DNA of 38,810 nucleotides from Escherichia phage CICC 80001, in sequence record NC_027387.1; one strand, written 5' to 3'. Positions 1 to 38,810 of this stretch are shown piece by piece (position 1 is the stretch's first letter; every line of letters starts with the position of its first letter). A program made the translations under genes and the position numbers. The notes beneath the pieces were generated by a model, which worked only from the letters and a program-made list of their open reading frames with translations, was not told where the DNA came from and did not search any database.

Positions 1-1254
1 CGTGAAGCTGACCGTTCCAAATCTGAGGCCAATCGTGCTAAAGGTTATGCTGATAGTATGATAGAAAGTGTTGAGACAGCCAAAGGTCACGCCGACCGTT
101 CCAATAAGGAAGCTAATCGTGCTCGTGATGAGGCTGACCGTGCTGCTGGAGAAGTCACTAAGGCCGCTGCACATGTTGTCACCGCTGAGGAACATGCTGA
201 CCGGGCTGACACTGAGGCTAACCGTGCGAAGAGTGAAGCTGACCGCGCGAAGATTGAGGCCGATAAGTTGGGTAACACGAACGCACTTGCTGGGACCATT
301 GACAGAATTGAGGATAATGATGTCCACTTCAAGGGTAAAATAGGCGCGCGCTCTTTGAATCTACATAATGATGCAAAAGGTGAGGGTACACAGCCAGTTG
401 ACCAAGTGTGGAACCAATGGCGCGCACAGGACTCTAAGGTTACTGCATGGGAACAGTGGATTCGGGCTGGAAGTAAGCGCATGGACTACTATGTTTTCAC
501 TAGTACGGACCCGGAAACTTGGCCTGAAGGTCGCTCCAATAGTAAAGGTAATCATACATTTTATGGGGACGTTCTATTTGCTGGTGGTAACGTGGAGATG
601 CACGGCAACCTTTATGTTAATGCAGTCGATTCTAAAAATACCGTTGCCCTTACAAATGTGGGTGCTAGCTTTAGGGCAAAAACACAAGGTGGCGGATGGA
701 GCCAGTGGACAGGAAGTCAATCTCCAGACGTGCAGCATGACATTGAAGGGCAGGGTGATACAAGCTATCTCCTTGAGCGAGCTACAATTTGGGGCAAAGA
801 ACACCTGTACGGTAAATGCTTGTACAACAATGGTACTGGTGCAAACTTCTTTATCCGTCACTACCTTCGCAATGCTTACTTTGATGTGTGTTCGGATGGT
901 TCCCTTAAAAGCTCTACGGGGTGGTACATTCCATCAGATGGTAACTTATTCATCAAGAAGTATGACTCGTACATTGATACTTGGGTCAACAGACGCTTGG
1001 GAGAACATGCCTACACTAAAAGTGAAGTGAACAGCCTAATTAGTAGTAACAAACAAGGGGCGAATAGTGTCTATTGGGGTCCGTCGCGATCCGTTGCAAG
1101 GAAATACTATAGGTCGCAAGAAATCCTAGCTGGGGGTGGCGAGGCTATGACTGGCATGGTGTTTGATGAACAAAACATAGTGAGTGGTGTGCGTTTCTGT
1201 GCTCTGTGGATAACCTTCCACGATGGTACAAAGCGTATCGTTGCATCACAATAA
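1..1254 (+). CDS. 17: Tail fibre protein gp17, C-terminal part (5' end runs off the window start; continues from the N-terminal part at 38238..38810 if the genome is circularly permuted)
   Basis: Frame-1 ORF open from nt 1; EADR/EANR coiled-coil repeats then a globular tip; architecture parallels T7 gp17 (EADKL..NxLAGxIDxxDxxxVxxKG) but the distal domain is diverged; followed by the holin gene as in T7. Confidence 0.85.
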   Translation, partial: READRSKSEANRAKGYADSMIESVETAKGHADRSNKEANRARDEADRAAGEVTKAAAHVVTAEEHADRADTEANRAKSEADRAKIEADKLGNTNALAGTIDRIEDNDVHFKGKIGARSLNLHNDAKGEGTQPVDQVWNQWRAQDSKVTAWEQWIRAGSKRMDYYVFTSTDPETWPEGRSNSKGNHTFYGDVLFAGGNVEMHGNLYVNAVDSKNTVALTNVGASFRAKTQGGGWSQWTGSQSPDVQHDIEGQGDTSYLLERATIWGKEHLYGKCLYNNGTGANFFIRHYLRNAYFDVCSDGSLKSSTGWYIPSDGNLFIKKYDSYIDTWVNRRLGEHAYTKSEVNSLISSNKQGANSVYWGPSRSVARKYYRSQEILAGGGEAMTGMVFDEQNIVSGVRFCALWITFHDGTKRIVASQ

Positions 1255-1267
1255 AGGAGACAATAAA

Positions 1268-1597
1268 ATGCGTAAGTTCTACAACTGGAAGTACAGCATT
1301 ACTTATGCTTATGGACAACCAACGTATGACGTGATTGACAAAGAAGGTAACGACTGGTATCGCCTGATGTGTGAACTTGAAGTTCGCCCTGAGAAGTGGG
1401 TCGTTGGGGTTAACCCCAACGGCTCAGTCTCTTGGTGGTCTGATGGTTCCGTAGATGGTACATATGCGCCGCCTGAAGGTGGCATGGTGATTGTTTGTGA
1501 AGAGTTCCTACCTGATTATGGACAACGCTGGGTGGACTCTGAGGACCGCTGGGAGTTGATTTCAGAAGCGACTAAAGCACCTAAGGAGGGTAGTTAA
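1268..1597 (+). CDS. Hypothetical protein (110 aa) between tail fibre and holin; possible tail-fibre accessory or assembly protein
   Basis: ATG at 1268 preceded by AAGGAG; stop directly abuts holin start (TAAATG at 1595-1600); no counterpart at this position in T7 as I recall it. Confidence 0.6.
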   Translation: MRKFYNWKYSITYAYGQPTYDVIDKEGNDWYRLMCELEVRPEKWVVGVNPNGSVSWWSDGSVDGTYAPPEGGMVIVCEEFLPDYGQRWVDSEDRWELISEATKAPKEGS

Positions 1598-1801
1598 ATG
1601 TTATCGCTGGACTTCAACAATGAACTCGTAAAGGCGGCTCCAATTGTCGGGACGGGTGTGGCTGATGGTGCAGCCCGTCTCTTCTTCGGATTGTCGCTAA
1701 ACGAATGGTTTTACGTTGCTGCTATCGCCTATACAGTGGTTCAAATTGGTGCCAAGGTAGTCGATAAGATGATTGACTGGAAGAAAGTCAATAAGGAGTA
1801 A
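1598..1801 (+). CDS. 17.5: Holin gp17.5 (class II holin)
   Basis: 67 aa MLSLDFNNEL..., near-identical to T7 gp17.5; hydrophobic segments. Confidence 0.95.
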   Translation: MLSLDFNNELVKAAPIVGTGVADGAARLFFGLSLNEWFYVAAIAYTVVQIGAKVVDKMIDWKKVNKE

Positions 1802-1806
1802 CACAT

Positions 1807-2076
1807 ATGGAAAAAGATAAGAGCCTTATTACGTTCTTAGAGATGTTGGACACTGCGATGGCTCAGCGTATGCTCGCTGATTTATCCAACGACGAGAGGC
1901 GGACTCCACAACTCTACAACGCCATCAATAAACTGTTAGACCGCCACAAGTTCCAGATTGGTAAGTTGCAGCCGGATGTTCACATCTTGGGTGGCCTTGC
2001 TGGTGCTCTTGAGGAGTACAAAGAGAAAGTCGGTGATAACGGTCTTACAGACGACGATATTTACACGTTACAGTGA
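1807..2076 (+). CDS. 18: Terminase small subunit / DNA maturation protein gp18
   Basis: 89 aa MEKDKSLITFLEMLDTAMAQRM..., matches T7 gp18. Confidence 0.95.
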   Translation: MEKDKSLITFLEMLDTAMAQRMLADLSNDERRTPQLYNAINKLLDRHKFQIGKLQPDVHILGGLAGALEEYKEKVGDNGLTDDDIYTLQ

Positions 2077-4423: not shown

Positions 4424-4867
4424 ATGATAAACAAGAAGAAGTATGTTGTCGATAAGGATACTGGCTGCTGGAACTTTAAGGGCTGTAAGACTAAGACTGG
4501 TTATGGTCGTATTCGTGTAAATGGAGTCCATTGGATGGCCCACAGGTATTCCCTGAGTTGTCATCTAGGCAGACCGATAGCTGACGGAATGGTTGTGATG
4601 CACCTGTGTGATAACCCCTCATGTGTTAACCCTGAGCACCTTAAGGAAGGGACTCAGAAGGAAAACATAGAGGACTGCATCTCAAAAGGTCGAGCAACTA
4701 AGGCCACAGGCAAACGCGATGCGTCGAAGAGAGACCCTAGCGAGGAACGTAAGGCTATAGTGATTCGTAGATACCATAAAGGCTGGACCGCAACGTCCAT
4801 AGCGAGATACCATAAGCTCTCTGTGGCGTGGGTCAAGAGGGCCATTGAGGAGTACCTAAGTGATTGA
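4424..4867 (+). CDS. HNH homing-endonuclease-like protein
   Basis: 147 aa; GCWNFKGC...GYGRIRVNGVHWMAHRYSL...MHLCDNPSCVNPEHL core (His-Asn-His with Cys pairs) plus basic C-terminal tail; AAGGAGG RBS; same architecture as T7 gp2.8/gp7.7-type proteins but at a different locus. Confidence 0.85.
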   Translation: MINKKKYVVDKDTGCWNFKGCKTKTGYGRIRVNGVHWMAHRYSLSCHLGRPIADGMVVMHLCDNPSCVNPEHLKEGTQKENIEDCISKGRATKATGKRDASKRDPSEERKAIVIRRYHKGWTATSIARYHKLSVAWVKRAIEEYLSD

Positions 4868-4941: not shown

Positions 4942-5031
4942 AGCCTACCTAAAGATTACTATAAGACTTAAAGTGTCCTATAAGGTAGGTTGTTATTATT
5001 GTTAATACAACCAACATAAAGGAGGAGACTC

Positions 5032-5181
5032 ATGTTCCGCTTATTGTTGAACCTACTGCGGCATAGAGTCACCTATCGCTTTCTTGTGGTACTTTGTGCT
5101 GCCCTTGGGTACGCATCTCTTAATGGAGACCTCAGTTCACTGGAGTCTGCCGTTTGCTCTTTACTCACTTGTAGTGATTAA
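5032..5181 (+). CDS. 19.5: gp19.5 small hydrophobic protein
   Basis: 49 aa MFRLLLNLLRHRVTYRFLVVLCAALGYASL..., matches T7 gp19.5; GGAGGAG RBS; below the 60-aa cutoff of the ORF track. Confidence 0.85.
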   Translation: MFRLLLNLLRHRVTYRFLVVLCAALGYASLNGDLSSLESAVCSLLTCSD

Positions 5182-5422
5182 GGTCTTCCTGACCGACTGA
5201 GGGCTCACCGAGGGATTCAGCGGTATGATTACATCACACCACTTCATCCCTATAGAGTCAAGTCCTAAGGTATACCCATAAAGAGCCTCTAATGGTCTAT
5301 CCGTAAGGTCTATACCTAAAGATAGGCCATCCTATCAGTGGAACCTAAAGAGGGTCTTAGAGAGGGCCTGAGGAGTTCCTAGAGGGTCCTTTAAAATATA
5401 CCATAAAAATCTGAGTGACTAT

Positions 5423-5569
5423 CTCACAGTTTAAGAACCCAAAGTTCCCCCCATAGGGGTCCCTAAATCCCAGCCAATCACCTAAAGTCAACCGAAGGTT
5501 GACCTTGAGGGTTCCCTGGGGTTGGGGATGACCCTTTGGGTGTTACCTTGAGTGTCTCTCTGTGCCCCT
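5423..5569. repeat. Terminal repeat homologue (single copy in this permuted sequence); physical genome ends expected here
   Basis: Begins TCTCACAGT as the T7 left end does, ends ...GTGTCTCTCTGTGCCCCT; preceded by ...ATCTGAGTGACTATC as at the T7 right junction; boundaries approximate. Confidence 0.55.
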
Positions 5570-5750
5570 ACCTGTTAAAGCCTCCTAAAGTCACCTCCTA
5601 AGGTCATTCCTACCGTCTACAGCCTAAAGACTACACTTAAAGACCCATTCAGTCAATCCCTATCTTAAAGATATTCTAAAGACCATCCTAAAGCCTATTC
5701 CTAAAGATGCCTTGTTGTTACCTATAAAGAGATTATCTTTAATCATTGTC
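5570..5750. repeat. Array of short CTAAAG/TAAAG-containing repeats next to the terminal repeat
   Basis: Repeated CCTAAAG-like heptamers every 12-20 bp, as at the T7 left end. Confidence 0.6.
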
Positions 5751-5752
5751 TT

Positions 5753-5775
5753 TAATACAACTCACTATAGGGAGA
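5753..5775 (+). promoter_or_regulatory. T7-type promoter (phiOL-equivalent)
   Basis: TAATACAACTCACTATAGGGAGA. Confidence 0.85.
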
Positions 5776-5828
5776 GACTACTTAAAGAGGACCAAAGAGA
5801 GATTAATCAAAATAATTTAAAAAGAGTA

Positions 5829-5864
5829 TTGACTTAAAGAGTCCTACCGGTTACTATTCACCTC
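5829..5864 (+). promoter_or_regulatory. Host sigma70 early promoter A1
   Basis: TTGACT, 17-bp spacer, TACTAT; positional match to T7 A1. Confidence 0.75.
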
Positions 5865-5955
5865 GTCAACGGGACAACGGCCTAAAACCACTCCCTGAGA
5901 TACCGGGGTCAACCGGATAAGTAGACAGCCTGATAAGTCATACGAAAAACAGGCA

Positions 5956-5992
5956 TTGACAACACGAAGTAACATGCAGTAAGATACACAGC
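5956..5992 (+). promoter_or_regulatory. Host sigma70 early promoter A2
   Basis: TTGACA, 18-bp spacer, TAAGAT; matches T7 A2. Confidence 0.8.
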
Positions 5993-6062
5993 GTCAACAC
6001 GGTAGCACGGTGTCTTCTAGGTGACTTAAGCGCACCACGGCACATAAGGTGAAACAAAACGG

Positions 6063-6098
6063 TTGACAACATGCAGTAAACACGGTACGATGTACCAC
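6063..6098 (+). promoter_or_regulatory. Host sigma70 early promoter A3
   Basis: TTGACA, 17-bp spacer, TACGAT; matches T7 A3. Confidence 0.8.
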
Positions 6099-6209
6099 AA
6101 GCAGTAAGGGTGTAGGGATAGGAACCGAGAAACCTGCCCGTGACCCGCCAAGGATAAGGCACTAGCCATGAGTCGAATTCGGTCACTCATCGCATAAAAG
6201 AATAACAGG

Positions 6210-12056: not shown

Positions 12057-13078
12057 ATGATGAACATTAAGACCAACCCATTTAAAGCCGTGTCTTTCGT
12101 AGAGTCTGCCATTAAGAAGGCTCTGGATAACGCTGGGTATCTTATCGCCGACATCAAGTATGATGGTGTACGTGGGAACATCTGCGTAGACAATACCGCT
12201 AACAGTTGCTGGCTCTCTCGTGTATCTAAAACGATTCCGGCACTGGAGCACCTAAACGGATTCGATGCACGCTGGAAGCGCCTTCTGAATGATGACCGTT
12301 GCTTCTACAAAGATGGCTTTATGCTTGATGTAGAACTCATGGTCAAGGGAGTAGACTTCAACACTGGGTCTGGCCTACTGCGCACCAAATGGACTGACAC
12401 GAAGAACCAAGAGTTCCACGAAGAGTTATTCGTTGAACCAGTCCGTAAGAAAGACAAGGTTCCCTTTAAGCTGCACACTGGACACCTTCACGTCAAACTG
12501 TACGCTATCATCCCTCTGCACATCGTGGAGTCTGGAGAAGACTGCGATGTCATGACGTTACTCATGCAGGAACACGTTAAGAACATGCTGCCTCTGCTAC
12601 AGGAATACTTCCCTGAAATCGAATGGCAAGCGGCTGAGTCTTACGAGTCTACGACATGGTTGAACTACAGCAACTGTACGAGAAGAAGCGTGAAGAAGGA
12701 CATGAGGGTCTCATTGTGAAAGACCCGATGTGTATCTATAAGCGCGGTAAGAAGTCCGGCTGGTGGAAACTTAAGCCAGAGAACGAAGCAGACGGCATCA
12801 TTCAGGGTCTTGTATGGGGAACCGAAGGTTTAGCGAATGAGGACAAAGTAATCGGATTTGAGGTGCTTCTTGAGAGTGGTCGTGTAGTTAACGCCACAAA
12901 CATCTCTCGCACCTTAATGGATGAATTTACAAACACAGTTAACATTGAAGGTGAAACATACTACAACGGGCACGCTTGCCAGATTGCGTACATGGAGGAA
13001 ACACCTGACGGCTCTCTGCGTCACCCATCGCTCGTAATGTTCCGTGGCACCGAGGATAACCCTCAAGAGAAAATGTAA
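12057..13078 (+). pseudogene. 1.3: ATP-dependent DNA ligase gene 1.3, split by a -1 frameshift near 12647/12648
   Basis: ORF 12057..12719 encodes the ligase N-terminal part (adenylation motif KYDGVRG); ORF 12656..13078 in the +1 frame encodes the C-terminal part (MVELQQLYE...HEGLIVKDP...RHPSLVMFRGTEDNPQEKM); one G missing relative to T7 ...TACGAGGTCTACGA... Confidence 0.75.
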
Positions 13079-13521: not shown

Positions 13522-14143
<622 letters not shown>

Positions 14144-37200: not shown

Positions 37201-38165
37201 ATGCTGCGCGTCAAGGTATGCTTGGGGACGTTATTAGTGCCACCTTAACAGGTAAGACTACCCGCTGGGAGAAAGAGGGATTCCTTCGCGGTGCCTCCAT
37301 AACTCCTGAGCAGATGGCTGGTATCAAGTCTCTCATCAAGGAACACATGGTCCGTGGTGATGACGGGAAGTTTACCGTTAAGGACAAGCAAGCGTTCTCT
37401 ATGGACCCCCGCGCTATGGACTTATGGCGACTTGCTGACAAGGTAGCTGATGAGGCAATGTTACGTCCGCATAAGGTGTCCTTACAGGATTCCCATGCGT
37501 TCGGAGCATTAGGTAAGATGGTGATGCAGTTTAAGTCTTTCACTATTAAATCCCTCAACTCTAAGTTCGTGAGAACCTTCTACGATGGCTACAAGAACAA
37601 CCGAGCGATTGACGCTGCGCTTACTGGTATCATCTCTATGGGTCTCGCTGGTGGTTACTACGCTATGGCTGCACATGTCAAAGCGTATGGAATGCCTAAG
37701 GAGCAACGTAAAGAATACTTGGAGCGCGCATTGGACCCAACCATGATTGCACACGCTTCGTTGTCTCGTAGTTCTCAATTGGGTGCTCCTTTGGCTATGG
37801 CTGACCTAGTTGGCGGTATCTTAGGGGTCGAGTCCTCCAAGATGGTTCGCTCCACGATTCTACCTAAGGACACCATGAAGGAACGAGACCCAAACAAACC
37901 GTACACCTCTAGAGAGGTAATGGGAGCTATGGGTTCGAACCTTCTGGAGCAGATGCCTTCCGCTGGCTTTGTGGCTAACGTAGGGGCTACCTTAATGAAC
38001 GCTGCTGGTGTGGTTAACTCACCTAACAAAGCAACCGAGCAGGACTTCATGACTGGCTTAATGAACTCGACCAAAGAGTTAGTACCTAACGACCCTCTTA
38101 CTCAACAGCTTGTGTTGAAGATTTATGAGGCGAATGGTGTTAACTTGAAGGAGCGCCGGAAATAA
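34209..38165 (+). CDS. 16: gp16 internal core protein with N-terminal lytic transglycosylase domain
   Basis: 1318 aa, same length as T7 gp16; N-terminal SLT motif ...TESRFQPTAKSKTGPLGMMQF. Confidence 0.97.
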   Translation: MDKYDKNVPSDYDGLFQKAADANGVSYDLLRKVAWTESRFQPTAKSKTGPLGMMQFTKATAKAMGLRVTDGPDDDRLNPELAINAAAKHLAGLVGKFDGDELKAALAYNQGEGRLGNPQLEAYSKGDFASISEEGRNYLRNLLDVAKSPMAGQLETFGGITPKGKGIPADVGLAGIGHSQKVTQELPESTSFDVKGIEQEAPAKPFAKDFWETHGETLDEYNRRSTFFGFKNAAKAELSNSVAGMAFRAGRLDNGFDVFKDTITPTRWNSHIWTPEELEKIRTEVKNPAYINVVTGGSSENLDDLIKLANENFEADSRAAEAGLGAKLSAGVIGAGADPLSYVPMVGVTGKGFKLVNKALVVGAESAALNVASEGLRTSVAGGDADYAGAALGGFVFGAGMSAISDAIAAGLKRSKPEAEFDNEFIGPMMRMEARETARNANSTDLSRMNTDGMKFEGEHNGIPYEDLPTEKGAVVLHDGSVISVSNPINPKTLKEFSEVDPEKAARGIKLAGFTEIGLKTLGSDDADIRRVAIDLVRSPTGMQSGSSGKFGATASDIHERLHSTDQRTYNDLYKAMSDAMKDPEFSTGGAKMSREETRYTIYRRAALAIERPELQSALTPSEKIVMDIIKRHFDTKRQLMENPAIFGNTKAVSIFPESRHKGTYVPHVYDRHAKALMIQRYGAEGLQEGITRSWMNSYVSRPEVKARVDEMLKELHGVKEVTPEMVEKYAMDKAYGISHSDQFTNSSIIEENIEGLAGIENNSFLEARNLFDSDLSITMPDGQQFSVNDLRDFDMFRIMPAYDRRVNGDISIMGSTGKTTKELKDEILALKAKAEGDGKKTGEVHALMDTVKILTGRARRNQDTVWETSMRAINDLGFFAKNAYMGAQNLTEIAGMFATGNVRALGHGIPILRDTLYKSKPVSAKELKELHASLFGKEVDQLIRPKRADIVQRLREAADTGPAVANIVGTLKYSTQELAARSPWTKVLNGTTNYLLDAARQGMLGDVISATLTGKTTRWEKEGFLRGASITPEQMAGIKSLIKEHMVRGDDGKFTVKDKQAFSMDPRAMDLWRLADKVADEAMLRPHKVSLQDSHAFGALGKMVMQFKSFTIKSLNSKFVRTFYDGYKNNRAIDAALTGIISMGLAGGYYAMAAHVKAYGMPKEQRKEYLERALDPTMIAHASLSRSSQLGAPLAMADLVGGILGVESSKMVRSTILPKDTMKERDPNKPYTSREVMGAMGSNLLEQMPSAGFVANVGATLMNAAGVVNSPNKATEQDFMTGLMNSTKELVPNDPLTQQLVLKIYEANGVNLKERRK

Positions 38166-38185
38166 TACGACTCACTATAGGGAGA
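38163..38185 (+). promoter_or_regulatory. T7-type promoter phi17
   Basis: TAATACGACTCACTATAGGGAGA. Confidence 0.9.
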
Positions 38186-38237: not shown

Positions 38238-38810
38238 ATGGCTAACGTAATTAAAACCGTTTTGACTTACCAGTTAGATGGCTCCACTCGTGATTTCAAT
38301 ATCCCGTTTGAGTATCTAGCCCGTAAGTTCGTAGTGGTAACTCTTATTGGTGTAGACCGCCGTGTTCTCACGTTAAATACAGATTATCGCTTTGCTACTC
38401 GTACTACTATCTCACTGACTAAGGCTTGGGGGCCAGCGGATGGCTATACTACCATCGAGTTACGTCGAGTAACCTCCACGACCGACCGCTTGGTTGACTT
38501 TACGGACGGCTCAATCCTCCGTGCGTATGACCTTAACGTTGCTCAGATTCAAACGATGCACGTAGCGGAGGAGGCTCGCGACCTAACTGCGGATACCATC
38601 GGTGTCAACAGTGATGGTCACTTGGATGCCCGTGGTCGTAAGATTGTGAACCTTGCGTTCGCTACCAGTGACTATGATGCTGTCCCTCTGAAACAGATTA
38701 AGGACCGTGAGTCCTCTGTGTGGAATGCTGTTACCAAAGCTGATGAACATGCTGACCGCTCTACTCGTGAAGCTAACCGCTCTCGTGATGAGGCTGACCG
38801 TGCTAAGCGT
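38238..38810 (+). CDS. 17: Tail fibre protein gp17, N-terminal part (3' end runs off the window; 191 complete codons)
   Basis: MANVIKTVLTYQLDGSTRDFNIPFEYLARKFVVVTLIGVDRRVLTLNTDYRFATRTT... matches the T7 gp17 tail-attachment domain, then diverges into EADR/EANR repeats. Confidence 0.95.
   Translation, partial: MANVIKTVLTYQLDGSTRDFNIPFEYLARKFVVVTLIGVDRRVLTLNTDYRFATRTTISLTKAWGPADGYTTIELRRVTSTTDRLVDFTDGSILRAYDLNVAQIQTMHVAEEARDLTADTIGVNSDGHLDARGRKIVNLAFATSDYDAVPLKQIKDRESSVWNAVTKADEHADRSTREANRSRDEADRAKR

Follow-up and report, generated by a model that had tools for sequence, protein, structure and literature searches.

The tail fibre gene of phage T7 (gp17, NP_042005.1, 553 aa; genome NC_001604) follows gene 16 and the phi17 promoter and lies ahead of holin gene 17.5. 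The gp17 protein carries the PF03906 N-terminal tail-attachment domain, and the proximal section of the T7 fibre is a triple-helical coiled coil (PMC13485008). Escherichia phage CICC 80001 was described by Xu et al. (2016, Food Environ Virol), according to the citation in PMC7598189. We analyzed its whole genome record (NC_027387.1; T7-like, Teseptimavirus), and this stretch of 38,810 bp is the window referred to throughout. At the DNA level, CICC 80001 is 91–95% identical to other Teseptimavirus genomes, e.g., HZ2R8, PHB20, and IME390.

Gene 17 of the window likewise follows gene 16 and phi17 and lies ahead of the holin gene, with an additional ORF (1268..1597) that T7 lacks. Its product has the same N-terminal domain as T7 gp17, although the two proteins align only over the first 292 aa, at 62% identity. 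Beyond that, the window has a longer shaft of the 'HADRS/EANRA' type, whereas the T7 shaft is of the 'NEALQFRNEAE' type, and the modules that form the central domain and the tip differ. By analogy to T7, the repeat region of the window would correspond to the proximal coiled-coil section, and we regard it as the putative trimeric coiled-coil shaft of the tail fibre.

Closer fibres were found in vB_EcoP_PHB20 and IME390 (654 aa), Sekstaphage-1 (667 aa), and Erwinia phage FE44 (666 aa). These were the best full-length matches (70–76%), and a search of 5.8 billion proteins gave 76% identity as the best full-length value; for the shaft alone, tblastn returned nothing above 68%. The four fibres agree with the window gp17 in shaft type and in their central domain. 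However, they have 20 heptads, compared to 16 in the window (19 if 60 nt are missing), and their last ~100 aa form another tip (...RTFRND...VPTRILV... instead of ...VYWGPSR...KRIVASQ).

The record of Shigella phage ESh6 (ON528719.1), a T7-like 'complete genome', is also cut in the gene 17 shaft (end 39381 / start 1), and its fibre was left as two unjoined misc_features. There, the plain join of the two ends is exact, unlike the off-register join of CICC 80001.

Record layout and the two halves of gene 17

The two ends of the CICC 80001 record are halves of a single gene. The features on which this reading and the layout of the genome rest are the following:

38163..38185, + strand: T7-type promoter phi17 (TAATACGACTCACTATAGGGAGA), by direct reading of the sequence, overlapping the gene 16 stop codon
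38238..38810, + strand: gene 17 (tail fibre) codons 1–191, stop-free in translation, encoding the N-terminal tail-attachment domain and shaft heptads 1–3
1..1254, + strand: remainder of gene 17 in frame 1, 417 codons and the stop, with shaft heptads, central domain, and receptor-binding tip
58..1254, + strand: annotated 398-aa 'tail fiber protein' (AIM41051.1 / YP_009152452.1), its start codon being an ATG inside gene 17
5422..5569, + strand: terminal-repeat homologue (TCTCACAG...GTGCCCCT), aligned to the 160-bp direct terminal repeat of T7

Gene 17 starts at ATG 38238, preceded by a strong ribosome-binding site and by the promoter at 38163–38185, which stands in the same place as phi17 of T7. 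In Pfam, residues 1–155 of the product match PF03906 (Phage_T7_tail) with an E-value of 5.9e-66 and 221 bits (cutoff 25.2). On the other side of the record, the product of 1..1254 matches the tail fibre family PHROG 4242 (E = 1e-68), and it was also aligned to related fibres. The neighbours are those of a gene 17 locus, located after gene 16 (gp16 ends at 38165) and phi17 and ahead of holin 17.5 (1598..1801) and the terminase genes (gp18 at 1807..2076).

Concatenation of the two ends gives one open frame of 608 aa plus the stop (609 codons). The initial annotation had placed both ends in the same frame, with 191 codons at the 3′ end, and the stop-free translations bear this out. It gave the length of the joined fibre as 609 aa, which is the number of codons when the stop is counted; the plain join encodes 608 aa.

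In the protein search, the ORF at 58..1254 was 100% identical to the 398-aa product AIM41051.1 / YP_009152452.1 (a single-member cluster, entry P0003), and no 191-aa product was among the matches for 38238..38810. Thus, the first 191 codons of gene 17 probably lack an annotated CDS in the public record.

The virion DNA of T7-like phages is linear, with a direct terminal repeat. For this reason, read assemblies close to a circle with one copy of the repeat, and the resulting record may be opened at any point. We compared 53 T7 proteins with the rotated window using tblastn. The T7 core genes from 0.3 to 19.5 were all found, in the same order as in T7, and the non-essential T7 genes 1.4, 3.8, and 5.3 had no match in the window. 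T7 promoters are present as well. A synthetic T7 concatemer junction aligned without a break to window positions 5010–6099. The direct terminal repeat of T7 is conserved within this region at 5422–5569, as a homologue of 148 bp compared to 160 bp in T7; this was the single copy, with no second one found in the window.

Since the T7 gene order is complete and the terminal-repeat homologue is internal and single, the record is a complete T7-like genome that has been circularly permuted and cut inside the heptad shaft of gene 17. This is in line with the earlier view of a complete genome opened inside gene 17, and its proposal of physical ends near 5423..5569 proved right to within one base. Judging from the sequence, the virion DNA is predicted to begin at 5422 and to close with a second copy of the 5422–5569 segment. 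The expected length of the virion DNA should then be ~38,810 + 148 bp before correction of the gene 17 junction, and ~38,955–39,018 bp with it. The split fibre gene is a record-layout and junction artefact of an already published genome, and not new biology.

Other differences from T7 were observed along the genome. Gene 1.3 (DNA ligase; 12057..13078) is broken up into ORFs 12057..12719 and 12656..13078 by a 1-nt deletion relative to T7 at ~12646 (TACGAGGTC -> TACGA-GTC), and a further 57-nt in-frame deletion is found downstream of the frameshift. Either the frameshift has genuinely inactivated a non-essential gene, or the record contains a sequencing error here. The nucleotide kinase gene 1.7 of T7 was matched only over its C-terminal half (aa 96–195, at 13548..13829) and is therefore shortened in CICC 80001. 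Moreover, an ORF for a 147-aa HNH homing endonuclease (4424..4867; PF13392, PHROG 6254) comes immediately after terminase gene 19, at a place where T7 has no HNH gene. T7 gp2.8 and gp7.7 are its relatives, and neither is present at its usual position; in tblastn, T7 2.8 and 7.7 matched only this ORF.

Heptad register across the plain join

The shaft extends from residue ~171 to the motif EADKLGN and consists of 7-residue repeats (HADRSxx, EANRxxx, EADRxxx, and so on) in which position 2 is Ala or Val and position 5 is a small residue. The underlying DNA repeats every 21 nt, and Tandem Repeats Finder reports this array as running across the join. Its features are the following:

38748..38810, + strand: shaft heptads 1–3, HADRSTR EANRSRD EADRAKR, parsed against six relatives
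38782..38804, + strand: exact 23-mer CTCGTGATGAGGCTGACCGTGCT, copy 1, ending 6 nt before the window end
1..3, + strand: extra CGT (Arg) codon that repeats the last codon (38808–38810), the register-breaking codon of the plain join
1..24, + strand: CGT GAA GCT GAC CGT TCC AAA TCT, resembling the joint of a 63-nt deletion with the crossover in GCTGACCG
4..276, + strand: thirteen uninterrupted shaft heptads, EADRSKS ... EADKLGN, in 21-nt periodic DNA
122..144, + strand: exact 23-mer CTCGTGATGAGGCTGACCGTGCT, copy 2; no exact repeat in the shaft region is longer
151..171, + strand: one heptad, EVTKAAA, in place of the pair EVTKAAA EVAKAAA of relatives

The parallel that had been noticed between the 3′-end nucleotides and the window start was confirmed: the last 71 nt (38740–38810) are identical to window positions 80–150 at 50/71 sites, and they also match at nt 185 (49/71) and nt 164 (44/71). 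The background for such matches over the whole window has a mean of 17.7 and a standard deviation of 4.1, placing the best match ~8 standard deviations above it. The segment at 151..171 marks an internal, in-register deletion of one heptad (21 nt) between AAR-GCN-GCT-GC repeats, away from the record boundary.

The plain join of the two ends is probably inexact, as it carries one extra Arg codon and breaks the heptad register. We aligned six close relatives (IME390, Sekstaphage-1, Carena, FE44, EG1, and nasanit), whose fibres have 20 uninterrupted heptads each. Against them, the plain join gives three heptads in register and then a +1 shift downstream. It places CGT|CGT (Arg-Arg) exactly at the boundary, where 28/29 same-type homologues have a single Arg. 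Alignments obtained with megablast across the join also had a query 3 bases longer than the subject, e.g., 1–194 versus 191 (H7-H12).

A second line of evidence is the spacing between two conserved anchors, DAVPLKQ and EADKLGN, taken modulo 7 in 107 homologues. This spacing was ≡3 mod 7 in 105 of them: 115 residues in 75 fibres, a value common to T7, which thus keeps the same register; 157 in 29; and 150 in one. For the plain join it was 130 (≡4 mod 7), and it became 129 after removing one codon and 150 after adding 20 codons, both ≡3 mod 7. Accordingly, Ala or Val occupied heptad position 2 in 3/16 heptads of the plain join, in 16/16 with one codon less, and in 19/19 with 20 codons more.

The DNA behaved in the same way. 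Within the shaft, the last 71 nt had their seven strongest matches all at shifts ≡3 mod 21 across the join, and the 21-nt period is offset by 3 nt in the plain join. Over the junction, Tandem Repeats Finder gave an array with 5% indels for the plain join and 0% once 3 nt were taken out. Register and 21-nt phase break at the record boundary and nowhere else in the shaft.

Besides the extra codon, the plain join lacks 20 aa at the boundary when compared to the six close fibres and, by anchor spacing, to 29/31 same-type homologues. The shaft interval is 27–28 residues shorter than in the top 25 GenBank fibres, including the internal 7-aa heptad loss. As a positive control we used the ESh6 record, whose opening likewise falls in the heptad shaft of gene 17: the plain join of its ends gave a spacing of 157 and 20 clean heptads.

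Thus, the plain join of CICC 80001 is probably wrong, either by one codon or by 20 codons (~60 nt). The initial annotation had read the window as a permuted complete genome opened in gene 17 and its simple join as the true fibre. The former stands, but the latter probably does not, given the Arg-Arg pair, the +1 register, the slip in 21-nt phase, and the 20-aa shortfall.

Accounts of the junction

We slightly favour a one-codon overlap over ~60 missing nt. The CGT at 1–3 and the CGT at 38808–38810 would be the same codon, present twice through a 3-nt terminal redundancy of the record. The true fibre would then have 607 aa and 16 clean heptads, four heptads fewer than its closest relatives, and two heptad-unit deletions would have occurred between short direct repeats: one of 63 nt, with its joint in nt 1–24, and one of 21 nt at 151–171. 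We give this combination of a 607-aa fibre, 16 clean heptads, and a real 63-nt deletion about an even chance. What argues for it is the composition of nt 1–24, which reads as the heptad 3/4 boundary of the relatives in its 5′ half and, from nt 13 on, as their heptad 7 in the 3′ half. The first six nucleotides (CGTGAA) match the heptad 3/4 boundary of all six relatives at 6/6 sites, and their heptad 6/7 boundary (AAGCAA) at only 2/6. At the protein level, 'R-EADRS/A' is the 3/4 boundary in 28/29 homologues and the 6/7 boundary in none. Moreover, losses of heptad units do occur in this fibre family, as seen in the 151–171 deletion, in a homologue with one heptad fewer (P0043), and in another where EVSKAAA is followed directly by HVTSAKG (P0062). 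However, a leftover of exactly 3 nt is an odd artefact, and the record boundary would have to lie only a few codons from a genuine deletion, a coincidence if the assembly was not broken by the indel itself. A deletion of three heptads at this place was present in 0/31 same-type fibres of the protein search (29 with spacing 157, one with 150) and absent from the top 25 GenBank phage fibres (all 27–28 residues longer). A stock mixed for fibre-length variants that differ by three heptads (63 nt) would account for the position of the break: recombination between short direct repeats in the shaft DNA, with its 21-nt period, would generate the variants, and a bubble in the assembly graph would explain a contig break at exactly this boundary in gene 17. 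We consider a mixed stock improbable.

The alternative with ~60 nt (20 codons) missing between the ends predicts a fibre of ~628 aa with 19 heptads. The contig would be a nearly closed circle, its ends flanking heptads 4–6 (EADRSTQ QAGISTQ QAVESK in relatives). This takes up the possibility of a misassembled repeat number raised in the initial annotation. Here no coincidence of position is needed, since the 20-aa gap falls exactly at the record boundary (in six aligned fibres, and by spacing in 29/31). Twenty codons also restore the register (spacing 150 ≡3 mod 7, Ala/Val 19/19), the loss of these three heptads is seen in no other known fibre with this shaft, and the record has at least one other possible error, the 1-nt deletion that frameshifts gene 1.3. 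We nevertheless hold missing sequence to be rather unlikely, at clearly less than an even chance, because the 6/7 boundary would have to read CGT GAA (R-E) where all six relatives read AAG CAA. This amounts to four differences in 6 nt (P ~0.017 at 20% divergence) whose outcome is the sequence of the 3/4 boundary, and 'R-EADRS' was found at the 6/7 boundary in 0/29 homologues. In addition, the exact repeat flanking the gap is too short for an assembler to collapse: heptads 4 and 7 share only 10–13 nt in relatives. A plain join that is exact after all (...EADRAKR-R-EADRSKS...) would mean that the fibre has 608 aa, that its coiled coil skips by one residue, and that the record happens to be cut between two Arg codons. 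The frame is indeed open across the ends, and register breaks are not impossible, since 2/107 homologues (P0032 and P0120) also depart from ≡3 mod 7. Against this, of 38,810 positions the extra codon would occupy just the one at the record boundary, where a single Arg is the rule among same-type homologues (28/29) and where register and 21-nt phase both break as they do nowhere else in the shaft; the exact join of ESh6, in the same shaft, keeps the register. An exact join therefore seems very doubtful to us. The remaining probability goes to other gap sizes compatible with the register.

Two assembly explanations were rejected. Units are missing at the contig boundary relative to the six aligned relatives (the 20-aa gap), as a collapse would leave them, but a classical repeat collapse requires a long exact repeat and none flanks the gap: among shaft repeats of at least 20 nt, the only one found was the 23-mer at 38782–38804 and 122–144, which does not flank it. 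Nor is the boundary accounted for by a contig break at the 23-mer, as the window ends 6 nt beyond it.

Regarding closer relatives, the exact 24-nt and 30-nt end sequences had no match in viral contigs. A codon-degenerate pattern for R-EADRS-[K/x]S-EANRAKG had no match in viral and metagenome contigs; these contig scans have low power and their negative results are weak, since the control pattern for a normal heptad 7 found only five viral contigs, showing how rare the shaft type is among them.

The mosaic fibre and the meaning of the record

The last ~65 aa of gp17 (~1060..1254) form a tip of the VYWGPSR...ALWI.FH.G.KRIVASQ type, common to Klebsiella phage Koku, Citrobacter phage YSYH, JB01, Pila, and the homologue P0012. 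The CICC 80001 fibre is thus an ordinary mosaic fibre of the T7 family, with a shaft and central domain like those of PHB20, IME390, and FE44 and a tip of a different type.

Between gene 17 and the holin gene, where T7 has nothing, lies a 109-aa ORF (1268..1597) with a strong ribosome-binding site and no Pfam or PHROG family. In Koku, its homologue directly follows a fibre with the ...KRIVASQ tip, and YSYH has the same order of fibre and ORF. More homologues are found in JB01, Pila, and N30, whose fibres have a KRIVASQ-type tip, and in C5 and the 171-kb phage ST2. This ORF may be a candidate tip-specific accessory or chaperone gene.

The value of these results is mainly one of curation. The public record and its RefSeq copy show the fibre as a 398-aa protein from an internal ATG, so that host-range comparison or engineering from this record would start from a truncated fibre, or from a join in which the coiled-coil register is broken. 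Such joins in other T7-like records can be checked quickly by taking the spacing of the two conserved anchors modulo 7. Finally, if the stock was mixed for fibre-length variants, gain and loss of heptad units would represent ongoing variation of shaft length in T7-like phages.
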